The translations under genes were made by a program, and so were the position numbers. From Rickettsiales bacterium (GTDB lineage Bacteria > Pseudomonadota > Alphaproteobacteria > Rickettsiales > JABSSG01), in the NCBI GenBank assembly GCA_013214525.1, contig JABSSG010000014.1, positions 169,503 to 233,502 of the forward strand: DNA of 64,000 nt, in the 5' to 3' direction. How positions within the stretch are numbered: position 1 is the first letter of the stretch; every line of letters starts with the position of its first letter. The notes under the pieces were generated by a model. The model worked only from the letters and a program-made list of their open reading frames with translations, was not told the origin of the DNA and ran no database searches. Below, one piece after another: positions 17,727 to 57,277 of the stretch.

Positions 17727-17890
17727 TATACTAACCATACCTGAAGACTCTAGTTTTTAAGTTTGAAAATGAAACTACTATCTTCCTTTAAAAATGTCTT
17801 AAATATCAACGATATTTGCTAATTTTTAAACTTGATATTAATTCTATTTTCTTTCTTTAAAACTAGGGTTCTTCAAGTACGAAGAGTATA
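17727..17890 (+). mobile_element. MITE-like element, family 1, full length with mismatched (chimeric) ends
   Basis: The ~165-bp core (tttttaagtttgaaaatgaaactactatcttc...cttcaag) is shared with the copies at 22920, 39517, 48625 and 49613; TATA at both ends. Confidence 0.85.
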
Positions 17891-17918
17891 CTCTAGTATC
17901 TGTTCTGTAGAAATTTAA

Positions 17919-18572
17919 ATGAGAAATATAATGGATAACTTTAAATCACAGGGTTTTATAGTTGTAATTTCCTCTCCTTCTGGTTGTGGCAAGACAACAT
18001 TAGCTAACATGCTTCTTAGTAATGATTCTAATTTAAAAAAATCTATTTCTGTTACAACTAGGCTGAAACGAAAAGGAGAAATAGAAGGTAAAGATTATTT
18101 TTTTACAACAGAAAAGCAGTATAAAGAAATGGTTGCCAAAGATTTGCTTTTAGAGCATGCACAAGTATTTGATCATTTTTATGGCATTCCAAGTCAACAT
18201 GTAGAAAAAGTATTAAAACAAGGAAAAGATGTATTATGTGTTATTGATTGGCAAGGTGGAGTTAGTTTGATGAAAAAAATAAAGCGACAAAATATTGTTA
18301 GTATATTTATTCTTCCTCCATCGCTCGCTATATTAAAAAAGAGGCTTATAGATAGAAAAACTGATAGTGAAAAAGTGATTAATAACAGATTATCTGAAGC
18401 AAAACATGAAATTTCAAAATGTGTTCATTACGATTATGTAGTAATTAATAATAAATTAGAACAATGTGCAGATCAACTTAAAGCAATATTGACTGCAGAA
18501 AGGCTAAAAAGAGCGAGACAAGATATAAAAGCTTTGATTGGTTCTATCGAAAAAAAGGGAATACTATCTTGA
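17919..18572 (+). CDS. gmk: Guanylate kinase
   Basis: SSPSGCGKTT P-loop, SISVTTR..R.GE.EG.DYFF, IDWQG. Confidence 0.97.
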   Translation: MRNIMDNFKSQGFIVVISSPSGCGKTTLANMLLSNDSNLKKSISVTTRLKRKGEIEGKDYFFTTEKQYKEMVAKDLLLEHAQVFDHFYGIPSQHVEKVLKQGKDVLCVIDWQGGVSLMKKIKRQNIVSIFILPPSLAILKKRLIDRKTDSEKVINNRLSEAKHEISKCVHYDYVVINNKLEQCADQLKAILTAERLKRARQDIKALIGSIEKKGILS

Positions 18573-18625
18573 AATATTTTATTTAATGAGGTAATATTTC
18601 AATATAATTAAACTGTGAGGATAAT

Positions 18626-19357
18626 ATGGATTTTACAAGACATAATGTTACTTCTGCGAGATCTACTTCTTATGATAAAGGGTTAAGGGAGTACATGCTC
18701 GGAGTTTTTGGTTATATGAGTTTAGCATTGCTTATAACAGGTGTTGTTGCTTTTTTAACAGCTTCTACTCCAGCAATAATGAAATTATTTTATGCAAGTA
18801 AACCTGATGGCACTTATGGTATGAGTGGCTTGGGTTATTTGGTATCCTTTGCTCCAATAATATTTGTGCTTAGTTTTTCTTTTGGCATTAATGCTATGAG
18901 TGTAGCTATTGCTAGAGTGACATTGCTTGCTTTTTCAGCTGTTATGGGGCTTTCTTTCTCCTTTTTATTCATAGCGTATACTGGTGAAAGCATAGCTAGA
19001 ACGTTTTTTATCACAGCATCTGTGTTTGCAACTATGAGCATTTATGGTTATACGACAAAAAAAGATCTAACTAGCTTTGGTTCTTTCTTAATTATGGGTT
19101 TAGTTGGTATACTTATTGCTTCGCTAGTTAATCTGTTTTTACAAAGCTCTGCAATGAATTTTATTATTTCTATAATTGGTGTACTTGTTTTTACAGGTCT
19201 AACTGCTTGGGATGTACAAAGAATTTCTCGTATTTACTGGGCGTTACCAGCAGGTGAGCAAAGAGAAAAAGCTGCTATTATGGGAACGTTGTCTCTATAT
19301 ATGGACTTTATCAACTTGTTTCTTTTTATGTTGAGATTCTTTGGTAACAGAAGATAA
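18626..19357 (+). CDS. Bax inhibitor-1/YccA family membrane protein
   Basis: YDKGLREYML, YGYTTKKDL, GLTAWDVQ, LSLYMDFINLF. Confidence 0.93.
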   Translation: MDFTRHNVTSARSTSYDKGLREYMLGVFGYMSLALLITGVVAFLTASTPAIMKLFYASKPDGTYGMSGLGYLVSFAPIIFVLSFSFGINAMSVAIARVTLLAFSAVMGLSFSFLFIAYTGESIARTFFITASVFATMSIYGYTTKKDLTSFGSFLIMGLVGILIASLVNLFLQSSAMNFIISIIGVLVFTGLTAWDVQRISRIYWALPAGEQREKAAIMGTLSLYMDFINLFLFMLRFFGNRR

Positions 19358-20359
19358 TAAATATTCTACGATTTGAATTGCATTAAGTGCAGCTCCTTTA
19401 CGAATATTATCTGATACTATCCACATACATATTCTGTTTGATCGGGAAGGATCTTTTCTAATTCTTGAAACATAGACGAGATTCTTTCCCTCAGCATCTA
19501 TCGGAGCACAATCATCATTTGATATAGTTACTCCAGCAGAGTTTTGCAGTATAGAGGTTATTTCTTCTGTAGATATGGGTTCTTTAAATTCAATATTTAT
19601 AGATATACTGTGAGAATAGAATACAGGTACTCTTACGCATGTTGCTACTACATCAATTGCTGGGTCAATAATTTTTTTTATTTCATTTCTTATTTTAGTT
19701 TCTTCTTTTGTAAAGCCGTTTTCTTCAAAAGAGTCTATATGAGGTATTAAATTAAAAGCTATTTGTTTTGAGAATTTTTTTTTGTTTATATTCTTTTGTT
19801 CAAAAATATTTTTTGTTTGGTTCTGTAATTCGTCTATTCCTATTTTGCCTGCCCCTGATACTGATTGATAAGTTGAAACTGTAACATGATTTATTGTGAA
19901 CTTTTGATGAAGTGGTGCAAGGGTTACTGCAAGTGGAATAGCTACACAATTGGGATTTGCTATAATGTTTTTTTTAGCATCTTTAAGATCATGTAAATTT
20001 ACCTCTGGTACGATTAATGGTATGTTTTGGTTCATTCTAAAATGAGAAGAATTGTCTATAACAATACAGTCGCTTTTAGTTGCTTTTGGTATGAATTTCT
20101 TAGAGATATCTGCACCAGTACAAAATAATGCAATATCTACGTTATGAAAATCAAAAGAATTTAATGCTTTTATTGTAAGCTCATATTTACCAAATGGGAT
20201 CTTATTGCCGGCAGAATTTTTAGAAGCAACTGCATAAATATTTTGTATTGGAAATTTTCTTTCCTGAAGTATTTTAAGAGCTGTTATACCAACCATTCCT
20301 GTTGCTCCTATTACTGCAATATTGATACCGATTTCAGGATTATAATTAATGTAGTTCAT
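19295..20359 (-). CDS. asd: Aspartate-semialdehyde dehydrogenase
   Basis: GATGMVG, IDNSSHFRM, IIANPNC, STYQSVSGAG, TCVRVPV, DNIRKGAALNA. Confidence 0.97.
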   Translation of the reverse strand: MNYINYNPEIGINIAVIGATGMVGITALKILQERKFPIQNIYAVASKNSAGNKIPFGKYELTIKALNSFDFHNVDIALFCTGADISKKFIPKATKSDCIVIDNSSHFRMNQNIPLIVPEVNLHDLKDAKKNIIANPNCVAIPLAVTLAPLHQKFTINHVTVSTYQSVSGAGKIGIDELQNQTKNIFEQKNINKKKFSKQIAFNLIPHIDSFEENGFTKEETKIRNEIKKIIDPAIDVVATCVRVPVFYSHSISINIEFKEPISTEEITSILQNSAGVTISNDDCAPIDAEGKNLVYVSRIRKDPSRSNRICMWIVSDNIRKGAALNAIQIVEYLLSSVTKESQHKKKQVDKVHI

Positions 20360-20949
20360 GAAGATTTTTTATTTATTGCACATAGCAACTGGTTTTGTAA
20401 TTCTATATTCTTTTGAAATACTCCTAAAAAATAATGTGTGAGAAGAGTAGTAGCTATATTTTTTGTTTCATTCGGATCTGTACAATAGTGTTCTGCTTGT
20501 ATAATAGTTGCAACTCCTTTAGGTTTTAAATATTCATTAATTGTATCAGCAATTTGTGTGGTTAGATTTTCTTGTAGTTGAAGTCTATGGGTAAAAGCAT
20601 TTACAATCTTTACTAAACTACCAATGCCTGCCAATGTTTGTGAGGGAAGATAGGCAATATGGACTTTTCCAATCATAGGCAATAAATGATGTTCACAAAA
20701 TGAAATGAATTTTATATCAGGGACTATTACTATGCCCATTTCTTTTTTACATGGGATAGTTGGTTGTTTAAGAATTAATTGAATGTCAGTTTGGTATCCC
20801 TTAAATAGTTTTTTATAGCGATTTAAAACTCTTTTCGGTGTTTCTTTTAAGCCTTCTCGATTTGGGTTGTCTCCTAACCATTTTAATAAAGTTGTTACGG
20901 CAGTTTCTGCTTGTTTATCATTAACATTCATAGTTTGTTTATTAATCAT
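20356..20949 (-). CDS. folE: GTP cyclohydrolase I family, divergent
   Basis: REGLKETPKRV, SFCEHHLLP, RLQLQE and AEHYC are present; several substrate-binding residues are altered. Confidence 0.85.
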   Translation of the reverse strand: MINKQTMNVNDKQAETAVTTLLKWLGDNPNREGLKETPKRVLNRYKKLFKGYQTDIQLILKQPTIPCKKEMGIVIVPDIKFISFCEHHLLPMIGKVHIAYLPSQTLAGIGSLVKIVNAFTHRLQLQENLTTQIADTINEYLKPKGVATIIQAEHYCTDPNETKNIATTLLTHYFLGVFQKNIELQNQLLCAINKKSS

Positions 20950-21032
20950 TATTCAGTATATCTATCTTCCTAGTGAATTTAGATAGTTAGTATAATAAAG
21001 TGTATTGACTGTAACAACTTAATTTTATGTGT

Positions 21033-21074
21033 TTAAACCTGATAATGTTTTTTAAATCCATTATCAGTTTTTAA
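21033..21074. repeat. Internally deleted family-2 element (inverted repeat)
   Basis: aaacctgataatg...aaatccattatcagtttt; same aatccat core as 13757 and 51763 with its own outer arms. Confidence 0.5.
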
Positions 21075-21244
21075 GAGTTGATTTGGCATTGTATACATCT
21101 ATTAACTTTTAGTAGTATTAATGTCACTTTTTTTTTTTGAGTGAAAATTATTAAGTCAATAAAGTTATTTTTTTTATGCTGAGCATATTATGAAGTTATT
21201 ATTATAATATTAGGTATTATATTGTTAATTATTGAAATATATTT

Positions 21245-22909
21245 ATGTTACAGGATCTAAAATTAGACAATCTAGAGTCATTATTGCCAGCAAAGGAAAG
21301 CCAAGGTTCTCTGGAGGATAGTGGGTCTGAAAATGATGGTGTTATCACAAGGTCTGTAACTACATTTCAAGTTGGAGATAGAATAGCTCCGCAGAAACCT
21401 ACAGCAATAAAGTTGCCACCTCGCATAATTGATGATGATGTGTATTCTGAGGGGTCAAGTACTCCTTCAATTTCTGGAAGAGAAGCTAGTTTTGCTCCTC
21501 CATTACATACTTTGGGAGGTTCTTTCAATACTGCAGCTCAAACTGTTTCTAGAGTTGTAGTTCCAGATGGTTTTACACCTCTAAGTGCGAGTAGTGGTGC
21601 AGATGTCTTTACTCCTTTTGTAGATAGTATTTTAGCACACCAAGAAAAATTTCCAGATACAGTTGTATATGGATCACAAAAAAAAAGAATACGTGATATG
21701 AGTCAAGCATTATTACAACTTACACATGAGCAAGAAGTGGCTTCTTCTGGTATAGAGCATACTATGCATCATAGACATGATAGCTTTATTTCTCCAAAGG
21801 CACAGTTTGGTCATATGCCGTCATTGCAATATGATAATGAAAGAGGACAATTTTATATTCCATCAACAAATAATATGAATTTTCCTTCGTCTATGCTTGT
21901 ACAGCAGCCTTCTACATTTAGTACATGGACATCGAAAATATCATTTTTTTTTTCGTATAATACTAAGAAGTTATATGATGTATCCCAAGAACAGATACAA
22001 GAATGGTCACGGAATACGATTTTTGGTTCTGAAATAGTGGATACAGTAGCAAATACTATTCTATGTTATCAAGTTCCTACCCATTCTCATGCAAAGAAAA
22101 TTACTGATAATCTTGTCAACGTTCATATACTATGGAATGGCTTTGATTTTACTACAATTGGTTTAACTTCTGCTTTAACAGCATATAAATTGCATGAAGA
22201 AGGAATCTGGCCTGCAATAAAATATGTGTTTTCTTCTTTTTCCATGATATCTATGGCGTATCCTATAATTAATACAATGTTTCCTTTTGGAGGCTATGCT
22301 ATTACGGGATATAAAATTATAATGGCCAGCTTTGCTGTATGGAATAGTATTGCAACGTTACATTCCTTATATCAAAATAATTATGGGGATAATCGTGGAA
22401 ATTATGAATTAGAATCATATCAAGCGAAACTTAATTTTATTGAATGGTTAGCAGATAATAGTGATGTAGAGTTTTTTAAGATAAAAGCTCAAAAATATGA
22501 AGATGCAATAAAATTGTTAGATACAAACAGAAGTGATAAATTTTCAACATTGGATAGTTTTGATAAAATTTTTGAGACTGAAAAATTTCATAAATGCCTT
22601 ATGCTTAAAGTAAAGAATCAGTTATTATGGAAGGATACTTCAGAAACATCTCTAACGGACTTGAGCAGAGCTGCTGATGAGTGTATAAAAGGTTATTTTA
22701 TTGCTCAAAAAATGTTAAGCCAGCATAATTTACATTTTGAAGACAGTAATTTGTATAGATGTGTTTCACTAAATGTGAAAGCACAGCAAGTTTCCCAAGC
22801 GGATGGTTCGCCTAACATGATTGATATACCCATAATTCTTGAAGGTTGTATAAGCTATCTATATGGGCCTGTGCCGTTAGGTGGGATTATAGATCATGAT
22901 GTTACATAA
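21245..22909 (+). CDS. Orphan membrane-associated protein, paralog of 23100; candidate effector
   Basis: Ser/Pro-rich disordered N-terminus, hydrophobic core, SLYQNNYGD...YELES motif shared with 23100. Confidence 0.75.
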   Translation: MLQDLKLDNLESLLPAKESQGSLEDSGSENDGVITRSVTTFQVGDRIAPQKPTAIKLPPRIIDDDVYSEGSSTPSISGREASFAPPLHTLGGSFNTAAQTVSRVVVPDGFTPLSASSGADVFTPFVDSILAHQEKFPDTVVYGSQKKRIRDMSQALLQLTHEQEVASSGIEHTMHHRHDSFISPKAQFGHMPSLQYDNERGQFYIPSTNNMNFPSSMLVQQPSTFSTWTSKISFFFSYNTKKLYDVSQEQIQEWSRNTIFGSEIVDTVANTILCYQVPTHSHAKKITDNLVNVHILWNGFDFTTIGLTSALTAYKLHEEGIWPAIKYVFSSFSMISMAYPIINTMFPFGGYAITGYKIIMASFAVWNSIATLHSLYQNNYGDNRGNYELESYQAKLNFIEWLADNSDVEFFKIKAQKYEDAIKLLDTNRSDKFSTLDSFDKIFETEKFHKCLMLKVKNQLLWKDTSETSLTDLSRAADECIKGYFIAQKMLSQHNLHFEDSNLYRCVSLNVKAQQVSQADGSPNMIDIPIILEGCISYLYGPVPLGGIIDHDVT

Positions 22910-22919
22910 CATATAATAG

Positions 22920-23068
22920 TATTAACCGTACATGAAAATACTGATTTTTAAATTTGAAAATAAAACTACTATCTTCAGTTAAAGATCCTCAAATATTCGT
23001 GATATTATAGGGTTTTTAAGTTTGGTATTATTTTTTTTTATTTTCGGATTTGCCAAGTGCGGTTAATA
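22920..23068 (+). mobile_element. MITE-like element, family 1 (diverged)
   Basis: Family core present; arms tattaaccgtacatg and caagtgcggttaata. Confidence 0.8.
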
Positions 23069-23099
23069 TAGAAGTGGTTAATTAAATATAGGGGGTAGT

Positions 23100-26393: not shown

Positions 26394-26442
26394 ATAGCTA
26401 TAAATAAATTATTAGAATTCGGAGTCTTCAAGTTATGGCTGT
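26394..26442 (+). mobile_element. Internally deleted family-1 element
   Basis: atagctataa...ggagtcttcaagttatggctgt; family right-end core with its own outer arms. Confidence 0.5.
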
Positions 26443-26449
26443 AGATCAA

Positions 26450-27414: not shown

Positions 27415-28242
27415 ATGGCAACTACAATAGTAATAGGAAATGAAAAAGGTGGGGCTGGTAAAACCACTGTAGCTGTTCATTTAACAATGGCGTTACTATA
27501 TTTGGGTTTTGAAGTGGCAAGTGTTGATACTGATATTAGACAAGCTTCTTTTACTAATTATTTAGAAAATAGAAAAGCAACAACCAAATTTAAGAATTTT
27601 GATATTCCTAATCCAAAACATTACAGAATTAAGTCAGATAAACAACAAACAACAGCTGAGATCAGTAATAATGAGCATGATCAAATTACAACTATCTTAT
27701 CACAAGAGAATGAAGTGCAAGATTTTATTATTATAGATACACCTGGTACTCATAATAGTTTGTCTAGGTTAGTTCATTCATTTGCAGATATAGTAATAAC
27801 TCCAATAAATGATAGTTTCTTTGATATAAATGTTCTTGCTGAAGTCAAAGCAGAAAATCTAGATGTAGTAAAACCAGGCATTTATAGTCAAATGATATGG
27901 GAGCAAAAAATTAATAAAGCTAAAAGGGATGGTAAGTCTATGGATTGGATAATAATGCGAAATAGGCTTCATAGTTTAGATTCTAATAATAAGAAAAATA
28001 TTGAAAAGGTTATTTCAAAACTTAGTAAGAAAGTTGGATGTAAAATTGCTTCTGGCTTTGGAGAAAGGGTTATTTTTAAAGAGTTGTTTTTGAAAGGATT
28101 AACATTGCTTGATTTGAAAAATAAGGCAATTACTACTAATATGACTGTTTCGCATCTAGCAGCAAGACATGAATTGTTTAATCTTCTTAAAACAATTGAC
28201 AATAAAAAAATTAATGCAGTTTTAGCAGAGAGTCTTTTGTAA
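27415..28242 (+). CDS. mipZ: Division plane positioning ATPase MipZ
   Basis: GNEKGGAGKTT, IDTPG, TPINDSFFD, GFGERVIFKELFLKGLTLLDL, SHLAAR.E. Confidence 0.93.
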   Translation: MATTIVIGNEKGGAGKTTVAVHLTMALLYLGFEVASVDTDIRQASFTNYLENRKATTKFKNFDIPNPKHYRIKSDKQQTTAEISNNEHDQITTILSQENEVQDFIIIDTPGTHNSLSRLVHSFADIVITPINDSFFDINVLAEVKAENLDVVKPGIYSQMIWEQKINKAKRDGKSMDWIIMRNRLHSLDSNNKKNIEKVISKLSKKVGCKIASGFGERVIFKELFLKGLTLLDLKNKAITTNMTVSHLAARHELFNLLKTIDNKKINAVLAESLL

Positions 28243-28274
28243 AATATCGTAATCTTCAAGCATGAGGAGTATAT
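28240..28274 (+). repeat. Solo right end of a family-1 element, overlapping the mipZ stop codon
   Basis: taaaatatcgtaatcttcaagcatgaggagtatat matches 49766-49800 with 2 mismatches in 35 bp. Confidence 0.8.
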
Positions 28275-28296
28275 TTAAAATAAGTTTAAAAGATTG

Positions 28297-38090: not shown

Positions 38091-38231
38091 AATTTGCTGT
38101 TACAATCTTGATTCTTTTAACCACAAGTTTAGCCTATCCATGAAAATAAATAAATCAACTAATGTACTCTGCAAGATAAATATTTTTTGATATGCAAATT
38201 TTATGTTAAAGACACATAAATTTTTATTGTA

Positions 38232-38394
38232 ATACCATTTTTCGTTAATAATTGATGTTTTAGGGTTCAAGATTTAATGACAGAATTAATTTCAAAAATA
38301 TTGCATAGCCATTGCTATACAAGACTTTTTTAAACGATGATAATGGCGTAAAGATTGAAATGATAAAAGGTCAATTATTAACGAAAAATGGTAT
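38232..38394. mobile_element. MITE, family 3: 163 bp with perfect 24-bp terminal inverted repeats
   Basis: ataccatttttcgttaataattga (38232-38255) is the exact reverse complement of tcaattattaacgaaaaatggtat (38371-38394); TA at both ends. Confidence 0.85.
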
Positions 38395-38419
38395 AAGTAG
38401 CAATTTTAAGAGAGCAGGA

Positions 38420-39516: not shown

Positions 39517-39682
39517 ATACACCCATCACACCTGAAGATCCCTGTTTTTAAGTTTGAAAATGAAACTACTATCTTCATTTAAAAATGCCTTAAATATTAA
39601 CAGTATTTGCGAATTTTTAAACTTGATATTACTTCCATTTTCTGTCTTTAAAATTAGAGTTTTTCAAGTGTAGTGGGTGTAT
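39517..39682 (+). mobile_element. MITE-like element, family 1, full length
   Basis: Core nearly colinear with 17727; arms atacacccatcacacctgaa and ttcaagtgtagtgggtgtat. Confidence 0.88.
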
Positions 39683-43420: not shown

Positions 43421-44435
43421 TGAAGAAAATTTCATAAAATTTAAAGCAATATTATTTTATGGAGATAATTCTGGTCTTATCCAGAGATACGTATCTTCTA
43501 TATCTGATAAATTTTTAGCAAATTCTTTTGCAGAAGAACAAAAATCTTTAAATAAAATTATATTTAATTATTCGCCTATAATAAAAGAGCCAGATTTGCT
43601 ACTTAACGAGATGAAATCTATAAATTTTTTTGGTGATAGAAAAATCATAATAATAAATGAAGTAATTGGAAATATTTCTAAGCAATTAGAACAAATATTA
43701 TTAGAAAGACAGAGCACTGATGTGTTAGTAATTCTTTATGGGAATAAAATTTCTACGAAGGATCAGATATATAAAGTTTTTCTATCTGCACAAGATTTAG
43801 CAGCGATAGGGTGTTATTCGGAGCAGTCATCTGATATAAAGAAAACTATTTTTGCAAAATGTAAGGATGCTGGAATGCAGGTTGAAAGTCAGGAAGTGGT
43901 AGAACATATTGCAAATAATATAGGAGGAGATTCAGCTTATATATCTGCTGAAATAGATAAGATTATTAGTTTCTGTGATACGAAAAATCTAATAACGCTT
44001 AAAGATGTAAAAAATATAGTTGGGGGCTTCTCCAGTAATGTGGGTTGTGATAAATATATTTCATTTTTGATAGAAGAAAAATTTCAGCTAGCGGAAAGCG
44101 AGTTAAAAAAGCTGATATTAGCAGATGTCAAACCTCATTTTATAGTAAGATATTTATCACGATATTTTATGAGGCTTTATGTTGCACATGGGTTGATGAG
44201 TGAAGGAGTTCATGAGGTAGATGTACCAAGAAAACTTACACCGCCAGTGTTTTTTAAGGATGTGCCAATATTTAAGCTTGCTCTTAAAAAATATTCAATT
44301 TCAAAAATTACAAAAATTTTAGAATGTCTTTTAAAATTAGAAATAAAAATAAAATCTAATGACACTAAATTTGCAGAGATGGTTTTAGAGCAGGGACTAT
44401 TTAATTTGTTTTATATAAAAAATAAAGTTAGTTAA
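43383..44435 (+). CDS. holA: DNA polymerase III subunit delta
   Basis: ILFYGDN.G, FFGDRKII, EIDKI, PPVFFK; leuS-lptE-holA synteny. Confidence 0.9.
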   Translation: MKITLNNVKKFLDEENFIKFKAILFYGDNSGLIQRYVSSISDKFLANSFAEEQKSLNKIIFNYSPIIKEPDLLLNEMKSINFFGDRKIIIINEVIGNISKQLEQILLERQSTDVLVILYGNKISTKDQIYKVFLSAQDLAAIGCYSEQSSDIKKTIFAKCKDAGMQVESQEVVEHIANNIGGDSAYISAEIDKIISFCDTKNLITLKDVKNIVGGFSSNVGCDKYISFLIEEKFQLAESELKKLILADVKPHFIVRYLSRYFMRLYVAHGLMSEGVHEVDVPRKLTPPVFFKDVPIFKLALKKYSISKITKILECLLKLEIKIKSNDTKFAEMVLEQGLFNLFYIKNKVS

Positions 44436-45448
44436 ATAACTCTACATTTATTTTCAACATTATTTTTTAATGTTGTTATAAATTCATTTAATGGACAATC
44501 ATCAGAAGATTTACATATTTTTACAATACGATTATCTAGAGAGGTTCTAACAAAAAGCTTTTGGTTTTTTATATTTTTAAGTACTTCAAATCTTAAGTTA
44601 GATAGATATGGTAACTTATTTTTTAAATCATATCCTAACAAAGAAGTAATAGTAATTATATTAGTGTCATGTCCTACATATAGAAAATATTTTTGTTTAT
44701 ATTGAGTATCTAGAATATTTGTTACATGAGTAATAAAGTCTTTTCCATAAAGGCAGGCTATTTTAGGATGAGAAAGAAATTTTAATTTACTTTGGCTTGC
44801 TAATAGGGTGATTTCTTGTTTCTTTTTTTTAGGTAGTTGTTTTAATAGTGGTTTATTGTATATGTCACTGACTCTAATTAAATCTGCAATATATTTGAAC
44901 TCTACGGCAGTAAGAAATTTAGCGCTAAAGATATTATTTATATATTTAAGCTGTTGTTTTATGTTTGGGATCAACCATGCATTCATCAGTGCTTTGTCTT
45001 TCTGTAATTCTGTAATAACAGAAATTTGTTTAGGTTTTTGTTTTGGGTCTACAATATTATATGTTTTTATATGGATTTTATCTGAGTTACTAGGAAACAT
45101 TCCTTTTACTAATGCTCTTGCCGTGTCTTGTGCACGTTGGAAACTTGTAGAGCTAACTTGTATAAGGTTTAATTGAAAGTTTTGTGGTAAAAGTTGTATT
45201 TTTTTTATGTAATATTCCCTAAAGTTTTTACCCAATAATTCTGCTTGTTTTTTACCACGTATGGTTAATTGTCCTGTTTCTTTTTTGTTCCAAGCATTTG
45301 AAATTTTTGGCATATATTTTTTAGGACCTCTATCTCCATGTCGTACGAGATCTAGTGCAAATACTAATTTGAGATTTGTATCTGCAATTGCAAGGTAGGA
45401 GTTTAAGAAAATAAGACAAAAAGTAATAAAATATAGTAGTTTTCTCAT
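44432..45448 (-). CDS. Secreted histidine acid phosphatase (array copy 4)
   Basis: Signal peptide, RHGDR, R..DTA, GHD and C-terminal Cys residues. Confidence 0.9.
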   Translation of the reverse strand: MRKLLYFITFCLIFLNSYLAIADTNLKLVFALDLVRHGDRGPKKYMPKISNAWNKKETGQLTIRGKKQAELLGKNFREYYIKKIQLLPQNFQLNLIQVSSTSFQRAQDTARALVKGMFPSNSDKIHIKTYNIVDPKQKPKQISVITELQKDKALMNAWLIPNIKQQLKYINNIFSAKFLTAVEFKYIADLIRVSDIYNKPLLKQLPKKKKQEITLLASQSKLKFLSHPKIACLYGKDFITHVTNILDTQYKQKYFLYVGHDTNIITITSLLGYDLKNKLPYLSNLRFEVLKNIKNQKLFVRTSLDNRIVKICKSSDDCPLNEFITTLKNNVENKCRVI

Positions 45449-45460
45449 ATCATTAATTAT

Positions 45461-46516
45461 TTAGCATTTATTTTTTATATTATTTTTTAATGTTGTTACA
45501 AATTCTTTTAATGGACATTCATTATAGGATTTACAAACTTTCATAATTTTGCCATCTAAAGAAGTTTTAACAAAGAGTTGTTTATTAGTTGTATTTTGTA
45601 ATAGTTCAAATCTTAAATTGGCAAGATAGGGTGGCATCTGCTTTAAATTCATACCTAATAAAGGAGCAATAGCCAGTATATTTCCGTCATGTGCGGTATA
45701 TAAAAAATATTTTTGTTTGTGCTGCTCCCTAGATTCTAATAAGTTTGATATATATAGGACAAAGTCTTTTCCATATAAGCATGAGAATTTTGGATATGTG
45801 AAACTATTTAATATAAGCTTGTGGCTTAAATTGATAATTTTTTCTCTTCTATCATCAGGGAAGGGTTTTAAAAAAGATTTATTCTGAAGTTTGCTAACAT
45901 GCATTAAGTCGCTTATGTGGCTAAATTTACGGATAGCAGAAAATTTAGTTCCGAATATATGATTTATATTTTCTAATTCCTTTTCTATAGCTGTCATCAG
46001 GGATGGGTCTGACTTTTTAATATGGTTTTTAAAATCTGTGGCTTCAGTAATAGGAACACTTTTTTTTGCATATTTGTTAGTATTTAAGATATCTTTTTTG
46101 TATGGTAGAACAGTGATTTTTATTTTATATGATTCCTCAGGATATATTCCTTTTAAAATGGATTTAGCAGTTTCTTTTGTGCGTTGAAAGTTAGTAGAAC
46201 GAACATATATAAGGGATTGCTCAAATTTTTTTGGTAACAAATGCGTTTTGTTTATGTAATATTCTCTAAATTTTTTGCCTAATAATTCTGCTTTTTGTTT
46301 CCCAAGTGGAGTAATTTTTTTTATTTCATCTTTAGTCCATGCATTAGAGATTTGAGGAAGATATTTACTTGGATTTCTATCTCCATGGCGTACTAAATCT
46401 AATGCAAAAATTAGTTTTAAATTTTCATCTGCAGATAAAGGATAGAAATCCAAGCTAAGAAAGCAAATTAGAAAAACAATAGATGTAATTTTTTTTATGT
46501 GCCAGAGATATTGCAT
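45461..46516 (-). CDS. Secreted histidine acid phosphatase (array copy 3)
   Basis: Signal peptide, RHGDR, YVRST..QRT, AHD. Confidence 0.9.
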   Translation of the reverse strand: MQYLWHIKKITSIVFLICFLSLDFYPLSADENLKLIFALDLVRHGDRNPSKYLPQISNAWTKDEIKKITPLGKQKAELLGKKFREYYINKTHLLPKKFEQSLIYVRSTNFQRTKETAKSILKGIYPEESYKIKITVLPYKKDILNTNKYAKKSVPITEATDFKNHIKKSDPSLMTAIEKELENINHIFGTKFSAIRKFSHISDLMHVSKLQNKSFLKPFPDDRREKIINLSHKLILNSFTYPKFSCLYGKDFVLYISNLLESREQHKQKYFLYTAHDGNILAIAPLLGMNLKQMPPYLANLRFELLQNTTNKQLFVKTSLDGKIMKVCKSYNECPLKEFVTTLKNNIKNKC

Positions 46517-47520
46517 TTATTTTTAATGTTATTTTGTAATGTTGTAATAAATTCTTTTAAAGGACAAATATTGATAGATTTACAAACTTTTATAATCCGA
46601 CCGTCTAGTGAAGTTTTTATGAAAAGATTCTTGTTATGTTCATTTTGAAATACTTCAAATTTTAAATTAGAAAGATATGGTGGTTTATTTTTTAAATCAT
46701 AACCTAATAAAGAGGTCAGAGTAATTATATTATTGTCGTGTCCTGCGAATAAAAAATATTTTTGTGTGCTTTGTGATTGAAGTATATCCATAACATGTAT
46801 GATAAAATTTTTTCCATAGAGACAAGCTATTTTAGGGTATGTGAGAAGTTTTAGTTTACTCTTATTATTTAATGATATTATTTCCTGTTCTTGTTTAGCA
46901 GGCAATTTTTTTAAAAGAGGCTTATTGTGTATCTTACTTACTTTAATTAGGTCTGCAACAGGTACATATTCGTGAATAGTAGAAAAATTAGTGCCAAATA
47001 TACGATTTATATATTTTAGTTTTTGCATGATTTCAGGAATAAACCATGTCTTTGAAAGGGTTTTATCTTTACGTAATTTTTTAATGATTGAAATGTTTTT
47101 TTCTTTATCTTTAGGATTCAAGATATGATATGTAGCTATGCTAATTTTATCTGCATGGTTAGGGAACATTCCTTTCAATAATGCTTTGGCTGTTTCTTTT
47201 GTTCTTTGAGAATTTGTAGAATTCGCTTGTATCAGTTCTAATGAAAATTTTTGTGGTAGAAGATTTGTTTTATCAATGTAGTATTCTCTAAAATTTTTTC
47301 CTAGTAACTCTGCTTGTTGTTTCCCAAGCGGAGTGATTTTTTTTATTTCATCTTTACTCCATGCATTTGAAATTTGTGGAATATATTTTTTTGGGTTTCT
47401 ATCTCCATGACGTACTAAATCTAATGCTAGTACTAGTTTTAAATTTTCATCTGCAAATGCAGGATAGAGAGTGATGGTAAGAAAGAAAGTGAAGAAAATA
47501 GATGATATAAATTTTTTCAT
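46495..47520 (-). CDS. Secreted histidine acid phosphatase (array copy 2)
   Basis: Signal peptide, RHGDR, GHD. Confidence 0.9.
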   Translation of the reverse strand: MKKFISSIFFTFFLTITLYPAFADENLKLVLALDLVRHGDRNPKKYIPQISNAWSKDEIKKITPLGKQQAELLGKNFREYYIDKTNLLPQKFSLELIQANSTNSQRTKETAKALLKGMFPNHADKISIATYHILNPKDKEKNISIIKKLRKDKTLSKTWFIPEIMQKLKYINRIFGTNFSTIHEYVPVADLIKVSKIHNKPLLKKLPAKQEQEIISLNNKSKLKLLTYPKIACLYGKNFIIHVMDILQSQSTQKYFLFAGHDNNIITLTSLLGYDLKNKPPYLSNLKFEVFQNEHNKNLFIKTSLDGRIIKVCKSINICPLKEFITTLQNNIKNKCNISGT

Positions 47521-47522
47521 TT

Positions 47523-48563
47523 TTAGACACCAGATTTATTGCATTTATTTTGAACATTATTTTTTAATGTTGTTACAAATTCTTCTAAAGGACAAACATA
47601 AGAAGATTTACAAACTTTTATATCTTTATTGTCTAAAGAAGTTTTCACAAAAAGATTTCCATTTTTTGTATTTTGAAATACTTCAAATCTTAAATTGGAA
47701 AGATAAGATGGAGTTTTTTTTAGTTTATAATTAAGTAGAGGCATTGCTGTTAAGATATTTGTGTCGTGTGCTGCATATAAAAAATATTTTTTATTATATT
47801 GTTTTGTCTTTAATAAATTTGCTACATGTAAAATAAAATCTTTTCCGTATAAGCATATTAATTTAGGATAGGTAAAATTATTTAGTATTAATTTTCTTTT
47901 AAGGTCTAAAATTTCCTTTATTGAGCTTTTAGGTAAAGATTTTAATAGAGGTCTATTATGAATTTCACTTACTCTAATTACACCGCTAACTCTGCTAAAA
48001 TCCTTAATTGTAGAAAAATTGGTATTAAATACATTGTTTATATATCTTAGTTGGTTTTGTATGCCAGTTATGATATATGATGGGGTAGCATTTTTTATTA
48101 TCTCTTTTTTGATTAAATTTCTCTGTTTTTTCTGTTTTTTATATCTAGAAGAGTTTAAAAAATCTTCTTTGGTGGGTATTACTCGAGCTATATCATATGT
48201 TGTTGGGTACATTCCTTTTAATATTGCCTTTGCGGTCTCTTCTGTGCGTTGACAGTTGGTTGAATTAATTTGCATAAGTTCTGATGAGAAATTTTTAGGC
48301 AAAAGATGTGTTTTATGTATGTAATATTCCTTAAAATCTTTGCCTAATAATTCTGCTTGTTTTTTTCCAAGTGGAGTAATTTTTAATATCTCATCTTTAG
48401 TCCAAGCTTTTGAGATTTCAGGCATATATTTTGTAGGTCCTCTATCGCCATGCCGTACTAGATCTAATGCAAAAACTAGTTTATGGTTTTCATTTGCAAA
48501 TGCAAAATAGGAATTTAAAGTAATAAAGCAGAATAAAAAAATAAACGATAATATTTTTTTCAT
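47523..48563 (-). CDS. Secreted histidine acid phosphatase (array copy 1)
   Basis: Signal peptide, RHGDR, AHD. Confidence 0.9.
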   Translation of the reverse strand: MKKILSFIFLFCFITLNSYFAFANENHKLVFALDLVRHGDRGPTKYMPEISKAWTKDEILKITPLGKKQAELLGKDFKEYYIHKTHLLPKNFSSELMQINSTNCQRTEETAKAILKGMYPTTYDIARVIPTKEDFLNSSRYKKQKKQRNLIKKEIIKNATPSYIITGIQNQLRYINNVFNTNFSTIKDFSRVSGVIRVSEIHNRPLLKSLPKSSIKEILDLKRKLILNNFTYPKLICLYGKDFILHVANLLKTKQYNKKYFLYAAHDTNILTAMPLLNYKLKKTPSYLSNLRFEVFQNTKNGNLFVKTSLDNKDIKVCKSSYVCPLEEFVTTLKNNVQNKCNKSGV

Positions 48564-48624
48564 AGGTAAGACATATTATAGGGGTTTTTATAACATAATT
48601 TTCAAAACCAGTCATTATAAAGAT

Positions 48625-48717
48625 ATATTAATCATACTTGAAGAATCCTAGTTTTAAAGACAGATAGTAGTTTCATTTTCAAAGTTAAAAACTGAAGGTT
48701 TCAGGTATGGTTAGTAT
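48625..48717 (-). mobile_element. MITE-like element, family 1, inverted and internally deleted
   Basis: gatagtagtttcattttcaaa is the reverse complement of the family core; arms atattaatcatacttgaa and ttcaggtatggttagtat. Confidence 0.85.
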
Positions 48718-48814
48718 GAAGTTATGTTTTTGTGTTGTTTCCGTTTCTTATGTAAATTTTCATTTACAATATTGTTAGATAAATATATGATTGAGCTTTT
48801 AATTAAACTAAAAA

Positions 48815-49585: not shown

Positions 49586-49612
49586 AGAAATCTAATATAC
49601 TCTGTAATGAGT

Positions 49613-49800
49613 ATATACTCTTCGTACTTGAACATTCCTATTTTTAAGCATGCCCTTGCGAAGGCAGGGGGTTGAAAATAAAGCTGCTATCTTCGCTTAA
49701 AAATACCTCAAATATCGCCAATATTCTTGGATTTTTAAGCTTGATATCATCTCTATTTTCTTTCTTAAAATATCGTAATCTTCAAGTACGAGGAGTATAT
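49613..49800 (+). mobile_element. MITE-like element, family 1, carrying a nested GC-rich hairpin
   Basis: Arms atatactcttcgtacttgaa and ttcaagtacgaggagtatat; extra sequence at 49649-49671. Confidence 0.88.
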
Positions 49801-49812
49801 TTCCTGAATATT

Positions 49813-51174: not shown

Positions 51175-51184
51175 GATTATAATT

Positions 51185-51800: not shown

Positions 51801-51832
51801 AGTTATTTTAATTCAAATACTAGGATAAAAAA

Positions 51833-52210: not shown

Positions 52211-52265
52211 CAATAAATAGATTTCTGTCATATTAAACTAACTGAATTAATTAATATAATACGTT

Positions 52266-53150: not shown

Positions 53151-53501
53151 TTATTTAAACTTTGAAATACAGTTATGTATTTTGCACTCATATTCTTTAC
53201 AGCATTCTTGAGTGCAAATCTTATGTTGTAAACATTTGATAGCTGACTCTGCTGCAATTTGTGCTAGTTTATCTATTTTAGAACCCATTTTCTTCTCATA
53301 GATTTTTTTTATTTTTTCTTTCATTAAATCTCCCCACGCTTTATTTGCAGCACATTTAATGTGGTTTGTAATTTTGCCATAACAATCATGGCAGCTTGTA
53401 TTACGACAAGTATTGTTTAGGGAATTACAGAAATTTTCCTTAGGTATGCAGCAATTATTGTTATTATTGCAGCAGTAATTATTTCTATTGCATCTTTCCA
53501 T
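53151..53501 (-). CDS. Small Cys-rich hypothetical protein
   Basis: GAGG RBS; 116 aa with Cys/Asn clusters around a helical core (AW.DLMKEKIKK...KIDKLA). Confidence 0.7.
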   Translation of the reverse strand: MERCNRNNYCCNNNNNCCIPKENFCNSLNNTCRNTSCHDCYGKITNHIKCAANKAWGDLMKEKIKKIYEKKMGSKIDKLAQIAAESAIKCLQHKICTQECCKEYECKIHNCISKFK

Positions 53502-53758
53502 GATAAGCCTCGTTGTTTAATTAACATATATCCTCAAGTGTGATGGATGTATACTCCATTATAAAGCAAAGGCGTTAATTAAATATTAAATGATATCAAC
53601 TAATTTAATTAATAATAAATTTTGATTTTTTTATAAAAATTTTAAATCTTTCTGAGCATGAGTTGGGGTTTTAAAAATAGGTAAATTTTTTAGTAGACTA
53701 ATTAAGATAAATAATTATATTGATATACATAGAATAGGGGTTTGGGATATATAAATTT

Positions 53759-53834
53759 GGGTGATTAGCTCAGTTGGTAGAGCACCTCGTTTACACCGAG
53801 ATGGTCGGCAGTTCGAATCTGTCATCACCCACCA
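53759..53834 (+). tRNA. tRNA-Val (TAC)
   Basis: GGGTGATTAGCTCAGTTGGTAGAGC...TTTACAC loop...GTTCGAATC...ATCACCCACCA. Confidence 0.96.
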
Positions 53835-54841
53835 TTTTTTTCTATTTGTTTGGGTGATACAAAATCTGTTGATATGGATATTGTTTCTGGCTCTAGTTTA
53901 TGAAATAATTTATTCTTATTTTTATAAATTCCCAATTTAAATTTAATTTCATCCAATAAATTATATCTTCTTAATTTTGGGAATATAGGATCAAAATATG
54001 TAGCAGGAAAAACAATGGTTGTTGGTTGTATAGAGTTTTTGATTACAGCTGGAGTTAGTGCAAACATTAGACTTCTATGTGGCATAGGCATTTTTATAGA
54101 TTTTTTTCCTAAGAGTTTACGTAATATCCTTTTTGAAAAGGAATTTTTTCTTGCATAAGTATTTTTATAAATCGACTCTGCTAATTGTAATGTATCATGT
54201 ATGATCTTGTTACTTGGGATGCTTGCTACTACTCGATTAGAAAGAACAGCGGTCTTTGTCCATCTGGAAGGTGGTTCTATGCCAGCAAAGAAGTTATATT
54301 TATGAACTAGTTCATCCATATTTTTTAAGCAATATATATCTGCATCAAGATATATTCCTCCATATTTATATAAAATTAGATATTCTAATATATCTTTTTG
54401 ACCGTTATAGAAGAAATTATGTTCATTGAAAAGCCATTTATATTTAGGGTTAATATTTAAAATATTCTCTATGTCTTTATTTGTCCAAGTGATGAATTGC
54501 CAGTCTGGATGTAATTTTTTACAGCTTTCAACAGCTTTTTTATATTTTTTAGGGAAAGGTCGAGAGCCTATCCATATTCTATGGATAATCTTTGGTATTT
54601 TAGGAGATTTGGAAGCTGTTACTTTAGAAGGTAAGTTAGTGTTATAGAGTTTCCTAAAGACATCTAAGATTTTTTTTGAATTTTCTCCATCGCGTAACAT
54701 AAGGTTATATCTGCCACGTTTTTCTATACCCATAGATTTATCAAAGTCGACTTCTATGATGTTTGTGGCAATACTGGGTTGTATAATAGTTAAACATACT
54801 AGAGTTATTATTAGGAGATTAAATCTTTTCCTTATTATCAT
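53825..54841 (-). CDS. Exported DxD glycosyltransferase (GT32/Och1-like), copy 2
   Basis: Signal peptide, IPKIIHRIWIG, HPDW, LYKYGGIYLDAD. Confidence 0.88.
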   Translation of the reverse strand: MIIRKRFNLLIITLVCLTIIQPSIATNIIEVDFDKSMGIEKRGRYNLMLRDGENSKKILDVFRKLYNTNLPSKVTASKSPKIPKIIHRIWIGSRPFPKKYKKAVESCKKLHPDWQFITWTNKDIENILNINPKYKWLFNEHNFFYNGQKDILEYLILYKYGGIYLDADIYCLKNMDELVHKYNFFAGIEPPSRWTKTAVLSNRVVASIPSNKIIHDTLQLAESIYKNTYARKNSFSKRILRKLLGKKSIKMPMPHRSLMFALTPAVIKNSIQPTTIVFPATYFDPIFPKLRRYNLLDEIKFKLGIYKNKNKLFHKLEPETISISTDFVSPKQIEKNGG

Positions 54842-55856
54842 TTTTTTCTATTTTTGCCATTTTTTCAGGTGATACAAAATCTGTTGATATAGATATTGTT
54901 TCTGGTTCTAGTTTATGAAATAATTTGTTTTTATTTTTATAAATTCCCAATCTAAATTTAATTTCATCCAATAGATCATATCTTCTTAATTTTAGGAATA
55001 TAGGATCAAAATATGTAGCAGGAAATATAATTGTTTCTGGTTGTACACCATTTTTGGCTACAGCTCGTGCTAGTGAACCTAAGAAAGTTCTACATGCATT
55101 AGGCATTTTTATGCTATTACCTTTAAAAATTTTTCGGATATATCTTTTTAATATACTGCTATTTTTTTGTTTATATACTTTCTTATAGTGTGAAGTAGCT
55201 ATTTCTAGGTAGTCTGATATAATCTTATTATTTGGACTAGTCCCTACAACTCTAGTTGTCAGAACAGGAATTTTAGACCATCTAGATGGTGGTTCTACGC
55301 CAGAAAAAAATTTGTATTTATGAACTAGTTCATCCATATTTTTTAAGCAATATATATCTCCATCAAAATATACCCCTCCATATTTATATAAGATAAGAGA
55401 CTCTAATACATCTTTTTGAGCTGGATAGACAACTTTTCGATTTTTATATTCATTGAAAAGCCATTTATATTTAGGGTTAATATTTAAAATATTCTCGATA
55501 TCTTTATTTGTCCAAGTGATGAATTGCCAGTCTGGATGTAATTTTTTACAGCTCTCGACAGCTTTTTCATATTTTTTAGGGAAAGGTCGAGAGCCTATCC
55601 ATATTCTATGGATAATCTTTGGTATTTTAGGGGATTTGGAAGCTGTTACTTTAGAAGGTAAGTTAGTGTTATAGAGTTTCCTAAAGACATCTAAGATTTT
55701 TTTTGAATTTTCTCCATCTCGTAACATTAAATTGTATCTGCCACGTTCTTCTATACCCATAGATTTGTCAAAATCTACTTCTATGATATTTGTTGTTGAA
55801 GCGATACTAGCTTGCATGGTTATCATGCAAGCTATAACATACATTATACGATTCAT
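54819..55856 (-). CDS. Exported DxD glycosyltransferase (GT32/Och1-like), copy 1
   Basis: Signal peptide, IPKIIHRIWIG, LYKYGGVYFDGD. Confidence 0.88.
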   Translation of the reverse strand: MNRIMYVIACMITMQASIASTTNIIEVDFDKSMGIEERGRYNLMLRDGENSKKILDVFRKLYNTNLPSKVTASKSPKIPKIIHRIWIGSRPFPKKYEKAVESCKKLHPDWQFITWTNKDIENILNINPKYKWLFNEYKNRKVVYPAQKDVLESLILYKYGGVYFDGDIYCLKNMDELVHKYKFFSGVEPPSRWSKIPVLTTRVVGTSPNNKIISDYLEIATSHYKKVYKQKNSSILKRYIRKIFKGNSIKMPNACRTFLGSLARAVAKNGVQPETIIFPATYFDPIFLKLRRYDLLDEIKFRLGIYKNKNKLFHKLEPETISISTDFVSPEKMAKIEKNDNKEKI

Positions 55857-55861
55857 TTGCC

Positions 55862-57115
55862 CTAGTTTGTTTTGTTTAAGATACGTAAAACTATGCGGAG
55901 TATAACATATATAACAGCTAGGGAGAATACGTAAAATGCTGGAGCATAATTTAGATCAGTTAAATGGGTTAGATAAATTGATATTGAAGGGGTAAAACCA
56001 CCAAATATTGTTACTCCTAGATTAAAATTTACTCCTACTCCTGAATATCTAACTTCAGGGGGGAATAAATCAGAAAGGAAAACATAGGTAGGGGTTAGTA
56101 TTGCTGAAGTCAATATTGCCATCATCGTTAATCCAGCAAGCACACAAATGTAGTTATGACGTGTAATAAGCATGAATGCTGGTAAGTATAAAATCATTAC
56201 TGTGCCAATAATAACTCTATTGAATTTTCTGTATGTATATTTATCAGAAAAATAACCAAATATTGGAGATAATATAGCAACTAAACCGGATACATATGCT
56301 ACACAGATAAAAGACATATTTGTTGAAAATTCCATAACAGCTTGAAAATATGTAGCTAAGTAGCCTTTATTTATATATGATATGCTTGCAGTAAAGCCAG
56401 CAAATGTTATTACGAGAATCGCTTCTTTAAAGTGATTTCGTATCATATATAACAAAGGGATTCTTGGTTTATTTTCTTTAGGAGTTTTATTAAAACGTTC
56501 AGTTTCAGGTAGTCCTAATCTTAAAAAACCAATTGCTAAGCCACATATACCTCCTATGATGAATGCTAATCTCCAGCTTTCAGTATCTAATCCAATAGTT
56601 GTGTTTATTACTAACCCTACTATTCCTGCTATTAAAGTTCCAGTTACATTAGCTGTAATTAATAAACCTCCTACAATTCCTCTTCTTAAATGAAAGGTAT
56701 TTTCTAGTTCATGTTCAAGTATATATACTGCAGCACCTACCCCTTCTCCTCCAAGAAAAAGACCTTGTAGAAGTCTGAATAATGAGAGTAAAATAGGAGC
56801 GAATATGCCAATATATTTATAGCTTGGCATTAAGCCAATACCAATTGTGACGATGGACATACCTAATATGGTTAAGATAAGAGCAATTTTTCGCCCCATC
56901 TTATCACCAATATGCCCAAAAACTGCTGATCCGAGGGGTCTAGCTATAAAACCTGTACCAAATATTGAAAATGCTAAAAGGATCTGTGTTTCGGGAGCGT
57001 ATTCTGGAAAGAATGTTTTACCAATTTGAATAGCAAATATAGCAAAAATAGTGAACTCATAATACTCAAGAGTATTACCTAAAAGTGAGCTTAACAGTAT
57101 CCGTGCGTACTTCAT
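55862..57115 (-). CDS. MFS transporter, ProP/MHS family
   Basis: GNTLEYYEF, ARPLG...FGHIGDKMGRK, RLLQGL..GGE, LFPPEVRYSG. Confidence 0.93.
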   Translation of the reverse strand: MKYARILLSSLLGNTLEYYEFTIFAIFAIQIGKTFFPEYAPETQILLAFSIFGTGFIARPLGSAVFGHIGDKMGRKIALILTILGMSIVTIGIGLMPSYKYIGIFAPILLSLFRLLQGLFLGGEGVGAAVYILEHELENTFHLRRGIVGGLLITANVTGTLIAGIVGLVINTTIGLDTESWRLAFIIGGICGLAIGFLRLGLPETERFNKTPKENKPRIPLLYMIRNHFKEAILVITFAGFTASISYINKGYLATYFQAVMEFSTNMSFICVAYVSGLVAILSPIFGYFSDKYTYRKFNRVIIGTVMILYLPAFMLITRHNYICVLAGLTMMAILTSAILTPTYVFLSDLFPPEVRYSGVGVNFNLGVTIFGGFTPSISIYLTHLTDLNYAPAFYVFSLAVIYVILRIVLRILNKTN

Positions 57116-57202
57116 TCAAATTTTAAATTTACTTAATATCTAAAGTAATAGGTAGCTTTTTGCAACAAAAATTTTTATTGTAATTAAAAAAAATTTTAAA
57201 AT

Positions 57203-57277
57203 GCACTAACCATGCCTGAAAAACCCTGTTTTTAATTTTGCATTTAAAAAATTAATATATTCATGTATGATTAGTAC
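57203..57277 (+). mobile_element. Internally deleted family-1 element
   Basis: Arms gcactaaccatgcctgaa and ttcatgtatgattagtac; ccctgtttttaa start of the core. Confidence 0.7.

Follow-up and report, generated by a model that had tools for sequence, protein, structure and literature searches.

A 164-nt hairpin repeat with paired variable arms and replication-linked orientation in a Rickettsiales genome

Reduced symbiont genomes commonly carry small palindromic repeats, whose mode of movement is mostly unknown, and no enzyme that mobilises the Rickettsia palindromic elements (RPEs) has been identified. Compensatory change within hairpin repeats has already been reported for REP doublets forming hairpins (REPINs) (PMC3116915; Bertels and Rainey, 2011), and bcr1 of the Bacillus cereus group keeps its secondary structure by compensatory base-pair changes that were argued to act at the RNA level (PMC3184786). 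For insertion sequences (IS) of Proteobacteria, a replication-linked orientation bias has been described that is strong for IS200, IS110 and IS91 and weak for IS630 (PMC3971601), and the pneumococcal BOX, RUP and SPRITE repeats show a bias of ~61-63% that mirrors coding bias (PMC3049150). The subject of this report is a family of TA-flanked 164-nt hairpin repeats in the metagenome-assembled genome (MAG) of a Rickettsiales bacterium, several copies of which lie in a 64,000-nt stretch hereafter called the window (contig C6, 169503-233502; copy coordinates are window positions). The assembly comprises 1.27 Mb in 31 contigs with ~30% G+C. We lean towards reading the repeat as a non-autonomous hairpin element whose spread would depend on the structure that its DNA takes up as a single strand at the replication fork.

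As in REPINs, the repeat is a non-autonomous element of ~100-170 nt that forms a single long hairpin with conserved end boxes, a variable stem and frequent compensatory changes; solo ends resembling decayed remnants occur, and a single-stranded intermediate has been proposed. It differs in that its genome contains no match to the RAYT/Y1 family (PF01797). It is also A+T-rich, with TATAC...GTATA tips, TA flanks and a variable part that reaches almost to the tip, whereas REPs are G+C-rich and carry a GTAG-type head. With IS200/IS605 elements and their non-autonomous derivatives, which move by single-strand 'peel and paste', the repeat shares a strong replication-linked orientation bias and an apparent reliance on DNA hairpins in place of double-stranded inverted repeats (PMC5027513, PMC3971601). 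Its genome, however, has no match to TnpA (Y1), the TnpB relics present do not lie beside copies, and the polarity of the better-folding strand is opposite to naive expectation. Its termini are inverted, whereas in IS200/IS605 elements the hairpins are subterminal, terminal inverted repeats are lacking and TA does not occur on both sides. Those elements use a specific 4-5-nt target at the left flank alone; the flank logo of the present repeat is only mildly asymmetric, with A at -1 in 58 of 83 copies and T at +1 in 41 of 83. In working terms the repeat resembles REPINs and IS200/IS605, but as no Y1 gene was found it is assigned to neither.

Other described systems were compared in the same way. 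Integron attC sites combine short conserved boxes with self-complementary arms of free sequence, are read as a folded single strand and have a replication-linked strand choice; this likeness holds in working terms only, since the present repeat does not consist of gene cassettes, and we do not count it among such sites. [quoted passage not shown] RPEs are likewise palindromic dispersed repeats of ~100-150 nt in a Rickettsiales genome without a transposase (Ogata et al., 2000 and 2002, as summarised in PMC10969869 and PMC3184786). Where RPEs are frequently inserted in frame within protein-coding genes, this repeat is mostly intergenic: by crude longest open reading frame (ORF) calls, 89 of 98 loci are intergenic and nine overlap a called ORF by at least 30 nt. 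Covariance model R1 had no matches in the 60 nearest Rickettsiales representatives, and BLAST had none in the 40 nearest. The mobile repeat bcr1 is similar in size (~155 nt) and in keeping its structure by compensation, but it has 5-bp direct repeats and was argued to act as RNA, whereas the present repeat is TA-flanked and its orientation follows replication (PMC3184786). QMITE1 and QMITE2 of Coxiella were rejected as relatives; their size and direct repeats differ. In a term search, a 2024 review of prokaryotic MITEs (PMC10969869) did not contain the words orientation, replication, hairpin or compensatory, and a literature search found no report of a TA-flanked MITE with a replication-linked orientation bias. 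Both compensatory change in hairpin repeats and replication-linked IS orientation are already known, and such a bias in a TA-flanked MITE is, within the reach of that search, unreported.

The repeat family and paired change along its hairpin

Run on the whole assembly, an iterated nhmmer profile detected 168 loci that do not overlap one another; 86 are full length, and E values go down to 1e-40. The repeat family recognised in the first-pass annotation of the window is therefore real, far beyond chance. BLAST alone gave 173 merged loci, which amount to 1.7% of the genome. These copy numbers are lower bounds, because the repeat is a main cause of assembly breaks; contigs that start or end inside a copy were noted at C7:3, C26:1, C19:61, C20:6747, C3:2 and C12:63065. 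The unit is 164 nt long and in the consensus fold forms one hairpin of ~68 pairs from end to end. Its short fixed boxes are the TATAC...GTATA tips, YTGAAG / CTTCAAG, TTTTTAAG and GAAAAT. Longer variants, 186 and 208 nt in length, contain one or two 22-nt G+C-rich mini-hairpin modules (core CCCTGCGAAGGCAGGG), which occupy three alternative sites, each after TTAA, across arm types. The module was rejected as an independent mobile unit, 24 of its 27 + strand matches falling within repeat copies. A second small module, CCTCATGAAAATGAGG, is present in a few copies. The minimum nearest-neighbour divergence among copies is 1.2%, and in many copies the hairpin top is missing.

The arms were typed in the 85 extractable full-length copies, with positions 6-8 as the variable triplet. 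The TATAC...GTATA tips are near-invariant, the next nine positions are variable, and YTGAAG / CTTCAAG follows; terminal inverted repeats are present, the left TATAC-N9-YTGAAG being mirrored by the right CTTCARG-N9-GTATA. Together these form an outer helix of 24 pairs in which 91.3% of cells are paired. The triplet was equal on left and right in 68 of the 85 copies and fell into eight types (TAA 42, TCC 9, CCA 8, TCA 4, TCG 2, TGA 1, TTA 1, CAA 1), so that one type accounts for 42 copies and three types for 59. Arm type travels with core variant, for example TAA with CTGAAGCCTCCGG and TCC with TTGAACATTCCTA. The remaining 17 copies have unequal triplets, mostly one transition apart; clear chimeras include C17:154477 and C6:187229, the latter being the window copy at 17727. 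Nine copies have perfect 9-nt arms, 41 have exactly one arm mismatch, and 67 have no transversion-type arm mismatch, the mismatches being mostly of the transition (wobble-intermediate) kind. The arms are self-complementary, variable subfamily markers and are not copy-specific.

Covariation was measured on 80 copies, the five most degenerate being excluded, over the 68 pairs of the consensus fold and against 500 shuffles and controls with slid partners. With 85 rows as input, RNAalifold predicted almost no pairs, and the consensus minimum-energy fold was therefore the structure tested, a choice that favours it over the slid controls. Standard pairs filled 92.3% of cells, compared with 87.9 +/- 0.2% after shuffling and 35-46% with slid partners. 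Changes on both sides were seen in 33 of the 68 pairs (21.1 +/- 2.2 shuffled, 9-19 slid) and in 293 cells (93.6 +/- 10.8 shuffled, 28-64 slid), and none of the 500 shuffles reached any of the three observed values. Such compensatory change within a hairpin stem is a trait shared with REPINs. Both-side changes affected 12 of the 24 pairs of the outer helix and 21 of the 44 pairs of the six inner helices; covariation is therefore not confined to the arms. Examples from the core are pairs 48/188 (GC 30, AU 26, UA 6), 85/172 (UA 43, CG 27) and 86/171 (UA 54, AU 15). In a separate count over all 85 copies, Watson-Crick pairs made up 83.6%, as against 76.7 +/- 0.3% in shuffles.

These results alter the picture drawn by the first-pass annotation, which had set a constant core against copy-specific arms. 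The arms form types, and covariation is no weaker in the core stem than in the arms. Its proposal that the hairpin matters more than arm sequence is borne out by the excess of standard pairs and of both-side changes; a dependence on the hairpin special to the arms is not supported, given the inner helices. The suggestion that the core was swapped among several end types holds weakly and only in the form of rare chimeras, most of the 17 non-matching copies being explained by a single transition. The alternative it had envisaged, of arms in a few fixed subfamilies each matching a known IS end, is half realised: subfamilies exist, and no IS end was matched.

The two strands of the hairpin are not equivalent. 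On the model-plus strand, A.C mismatches filled 432 cells and G.T mismatches 169, in agreement with the earlier remark that the mismatches suit G-U or G-T pairing on one strand. Because the model-plus mismatches are mainly A.C, the opposite (model-minus) strand folds better: it was more stable in 82 of 85 copies under DNA parameters (mean -31.6 vs -25.9 kcal/mol) and in 73 of 85 under RNA parameters, and the consensus fold under RNA parameters came to -64.0 vs -47.2 kcal/mol for the two strands. The A.C excess comes from a few inherited mismatches (11 A.C vs 2 G.T positions in at least 10 copies), and counted by position and type at a threshold of at least three copies the two kinds are roughly even.

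Orientation relative to replication

Orientation was counted at 98 loci with a clear strand call, relative to GC skew within +/-10 kb. The G-rich strand was taken as the leading strand, as is established for bacterial GC skew. The model-plus strand lay on the local G-rich strand at 82 of the 98 loci (84%; Fisher p = 3e-10), regardless of flanking-gene direction; an orientation bias relative to replication is a trait of the IS200/IS605 type. Called ORFs lay on the G-rich strand in 60% of cases. The bias was seen between convergent or divergent neighbours (35/41), where both neighbours were leading (27/34) and where both were lagging (12/14), and it recurred within arm types (34/42, 7/9 and 7/8). 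By age, it was 15/16 among copies with a nearest-neighbour distance below 3% and 15/22 among those above 10%. It did not scale with the per-copy difference in strand stability. The plus strand of the repeat is C-rich (C 25, G 17), opposite to the surrounding skew, and in-place mutation bias is therefore not the source of the asymmetry. A second, unrelated palindromic family, described below, is likewise biased relative to GC skew (24/31, p = 0.003).

Candidate modes of movement

The preferred reading would make the repeat a palindromic mobile element in the style of MITEs, RPEs and REPINs, with the 164-nt unit acting as one hairpin. The helices between the fixed boxes, the 9-nt arms included, would be free to change provided that each change on one side is matched on the other; those lineages in which the hairpin was preserved would have multiplied into the arm and core subfamilies, and occasional recombination would have produced the chimeras. 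We infer that the fold acts as single-stranded DNA at the fork, rather than as RNA or as a double-stranded transposase site, because orientation tracks replication and not transcription. Insertion would take place at TA, and the mobilising enzyme would be one that is not in the assembly. The repeat offers three linked handles, namely helices between fixed boxes that change pair by pair, a strand asymmetry, and a replication-linked orientation independent of transcription, which jointly suggest a single-stranded DNA step in an element otherwise like a TA-type MITE. Were this so, the division between double-stranded MITEs with terminal inverted repeats and target-site duplications and single-stranded hairpin elements would be too simple, and the end design conserved across phyla could serve as bait for the enzyme; if not, the repeat is one more MITE family with subfamilies.

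Several points weigh against this reading. Kinship within subfamilies inflates the cell counts of the covariation analysis, whose statistics ignore the tree and leave independent compensatory events uncounted. Replication direction was inferred solely from GC skew on 31 contigs, and gene calls were crude longest ORFs. The better-folding strand lies on the C-rich strand, which is the leading-strand template, whereas the IS608-type model predicts the lagging-strand template; outside this genome the same polarity was found in five of eight copies (4/4 in a Holosporales MAG, 1/4 elsewhere, at short loci). TA flanks and ends like terminal inverted repeats are a hallmark of double-stranded cut-and-paste MITEs of the IS630/Tc1 type and do not characterise the single-strand transposons known. 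Metagenome contigs yielded no empty site, so that the TA is a putative target duplication; in this search a 554-aa neighbour protein had no relative among those contigs. Solo right ends are found in excess directly upstream of full copies. The polarity, the TA flanks and this excess remain unexplained by the favoured reading.

Nor was an enzyme found. The 95.7%-complete MAG contained no matches to PF01797 (Y1/RAYT; E <= 0.01, controls matched in 6 of 14 genomes), PF13358 (DDE_3), PF01609 (DDE_Tnp_1) or PF00665 (rve), which also counts against the preferred reading, and at this completeness an unassembled IS may exist. PF01359 (mariner) likewise had no matches in the MAG, but its control matched nowhere and the result is uninformative. 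Two decayed TnpB (PF07282) pieces were found, at C30:34654-35042 and C9:3-182, neither of which adjoins a repeat copy. The 3-kb contig C9 carries a long ORF after an overlapping short ORF, together with an ORF that resembles a tyrosine recombinase by sequence, and may be a mobile element or plasmid fragment.

Relatives of the repeat were sought in other lineages by pattern scan and R1. Full-length relatives occur in a Rickettsiaceae MAG (106 bits) and in a Holosporales MAG (four copies, 69-85 bits), while a gammaproteobacterial and a Planctomycetaceae MAG contain shorter forms; metagenome contigs hold additional copies. TATAC, a paired variable arm and TGAA are common to all of them. The design TATAC-N9/10-TGAA...TTTTTAA, from 54 to ~210 nt, was found at L034, L078, L082, L117, L123, L016 and others, L122, L209, L214 and L183. 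The family is also present in a related strain from another marine metagenome (run X2). The patchy spread of the end design, absent from the 60 nearest relatives searched, suggests horizontal transfer. None of the transposase loci examined in four other carrier genomes was bounded by TATAC-N9-YTGAA ends. Ends near DDE_3 genes in the Planctomycetaceae MAG were rejected as element boundaries, being complete short copies beside the genes. A 1343-nt candidate autonomous element (L184, L197) was also rejected, as it consists of two short copies around an ORF, with no transposase; from its translation we take this ORF to be S49 peptidase-like. A Pfam search of 35 ORFs beside copies on the gammaproteobacterial and Planctomycetaceae MAG contigs returned housekeeping genes only. 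The strict end pattern had no match among the genome contigs scanned, and a looser pattern gave mostly single chance matches. It is conceivable, though rather doubtful, that TATAC-N9-YTGAA hairpins form a widespread superfamily, represented here, in the Rickettsiaceae, Holosporales, gammaproteobacterial and Planctomycetaceae MAGs and in metagenome contigs. At the replication fork its members would be moved in the form of folded single-stranded DNA, and the enzyme, recognisable neither as DDE_3 nor as Y1, would read two short boxes and the hairpin shape, much as attC sites are read by integron integrases, in which case this would be an undescribed structure-specific, TA-linked transposition.

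Of the explanations that dispense with single-stranded DNA, the one that survives best, and which we still consider unlikely, is that the copies represent MITE subfamilies of the ordinary TA-targeting kind, with IS630/Tc1-like or other DDE insertion sequences as their origin. Double-stranded TATAC and TGAAG boxes one helical turn apart would be bound by the transposase, leaving the spacer free, and the ends of founder copies would simply have been copied. T and A flank the repeat in 68 of 85 copies, and all three strictly abutting pairs share a single TA (3/3). The conserved terminal boxes with a variable spacer, the arm subfamilies tied to core variants, and the same end design in other phyla, with DDE_3 genes in two of the four other carrier genomes examined, all suit this account. 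A free spacer, however, would drift independently at each end, yet 68 of 85 triplets match in eight types, and the non-terminal stems covary equally (21 of 44 inner pairs). A double-stranded site does not account for the joint change of the inner stems and of end positions that the transposase would not recognise. The genome lacks DDE_3, DDE_Tnp_1 and rve matches, and no examined DDE_3 locus elsewhere is bounded by the repeat's ends, those nearby being separate short copies. The 84% bias also exceeds that reported for IS630 in Proteobacteria (PMC3971601) and the ~61-63% reported for pneumococcal BOX, RUP and SPRITE (PMC3049150).

It is improbable that selection acted on the hairpin as RNA, for instance to terminate or stabilise transcripts, to offer an RNase its target or to serve as a small RNA, in which case the compensatory changes would be due to RNA function instead of mobility. 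The mismatches are compatible with G-U pairing on one strand (432 vs 169 cells), the consensus folds at -64.0 vs -47.2 kcal/mol under RNA parameters, and RNA-level compensatory change has been described for bcr1 (PMC3184786). A metatranscriptome from the source sample (X3) covers almost none of the window. RNA function is disfavoured because orientation ignores transcription: it tracks GC skew and not genes (27/34 with leading and 12/14 with lagging neighbours), and between co-directional genes there are 29 contexts in which transcription would copy out the poorer-folding strand, as against 19 for the better-folding one. Moreover, 41 of the 98 loci lie between convergent or divergent genes, and ~170 dispersed copies, many of them truncated, better fit a selfish element than functional RNAs.

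Less probable again is that the orientation bias arose after insertion, through faster deletion of copies whose stronger hairpin lay on the lagging-strand template, and would thus carry no information on how insertion takes place. In E. coli, hairpins on the lagging-strand template are preferentially deleted. In favour of this view, 68 of 85 copies have their weaker hairpin on the G-rich strand, the unrelated second palindromic family has the same polarity (24/31), and many copies lack the hairpin top. Post-insertion loss is disfavoured because there is no dose-response (11/13 copies biased where the strand difference is smallest, 13/18 where it is largest) and because of the age trend, the bias being highest in the youngest copies (15/16) and lowest in the oldest (15/22); copies in the minority orientation also show no difference from the rest in strand asymmetry (p = 0.39).

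The least credible explanation is that the arms match without selection, either because an extruded hairpin undergoes mismatch repair or gene conversion or because one arm is synthesised from the other, as the first-pass annotation had also entertained: left and right arms do match in most copies, nine of the 85 perfectly over 9 nt, but inherited mismatches persist in 38-56 copies (11/154 A.C in 47, 15/150 C.A in 38, 46/118 A.C in 56, 49/115 C.A in 43), which is why arm correction is disfavoured, while asymmetric internal loops also persist, a single arm mismatch is retained in 41 of the 85 copies, and the 67 copies without a transversion-type mismatch bear the usual signature of stepwise compensation.

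Copies and neighbouring features in the window

The copies, fragments and candidate remnants in the window are as follows.

17727..17890, + strand: full-length 164-nt chimeric copy (R1 144.8 bits, E 2e-31)
22918..23070, + strand: 153-nt copy with a diverged right half (R1 54.6 bits, E 2e-10)
26394..26445, no strand assigned: possible heavily deleted remnant with arms AGCTATAA / TTATGGCT, read by eye
28233..28276, + strand: 44-nt solo right-end fragment of arm type B (...CTTCAAGCATGAGGAGTATA), 91% identical to 49759-49802
38231..38395, - strand: 165-nt hairpin, its 24-bp arms perfect and its termini ATAC...GTAT (R1 46.7 bits, E 1.5e-8)
39518..39681, + strand: full-length copy of a rare arm type, TACAC CCATCACAC / reverse complement CCACTACAC (R1 157.6 bits)
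48624..48718, - strand: 95-nt internally deleted copy that keeps both arms (R1 63.9 bits, E 1.5e-12)
49614..49799, + strand: 186-nt copy of arm type B (TCTTCGTAC / TCCTCGTAC) with the 22-nt module (R1 161 bits)
49649..49670, + strand: 22-nt G+C-rich mini-hairpin module in the preceding copy, inserted after TTTTTAAG
57202..57278, + strand: 77-nt internally deleted copy that keeps both arms (R1 36.4 bits, E 3.8e-6)

Eight sites had been claimed in the first-pass annotation. Six of them were found by R1 at E <=4e-6 (17727, 22918, 39518, 48624, 49614 and 57202), and a seventh is the 44-nt fragment at 28233-28276, which overlaps the stop of the ORF at 27415-28242. The eighth, at 26394, was supported by neither the nhmmer profile nor R1 and is known solely by visual reading, from a short stretch of GGAGTCTTCAAG with paired flanks. 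The arm pairs quoted in the first-pass annotation for 39517, 49613, 22920, 48625 and 26394 read as given. R1 added one hairpin beyond the eight, at 38231-38395, whose arms and core are unlike those of the main family; judging by its letters, it may be a distant member or belong to a separate (third) family.

In the chimeric copy at 17727, whose model-plus strand is the + strand of the window, an A-like left arm (TAACCATAC) is combined with a B-like right arm (reverse complement TCTTCGTAC). These arms (CTAACCATA and TACGAAGAG) do not pair, with mismatches at four of nine arm positions. The arms of the copy at 22918, TTAACCGTA / TGCGGTTAA, show one transition mismatch. The copy at 39518 sits between a tRNA gene and an ORF, and the copy at 48624 is oriented opposite to the others. 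In the related strain of run X2 the copy at 57202 is also present, and positions 49592-49812 are replaced by 40 other letters that correspond to an end of the second palindromic family.

This second, unrelated family is ~162 nt long, with ends AACCCCAGTTATGGATTA...TAATCCATAACTGGGGTT, and has 42 nhmmer loci genome-wide. Its end motifs occur in the window at about 13860, 51780 and 61420, and its loci frequently adjoin main-family copies or break into them. Two tandem arrays of diverged paralogous genes of ~340 aa lie on the minus strand of the window, four genes at 44432-48563 and two at 53825-55856, with a repeat period of ~1.03 kb and 66-96% identity.

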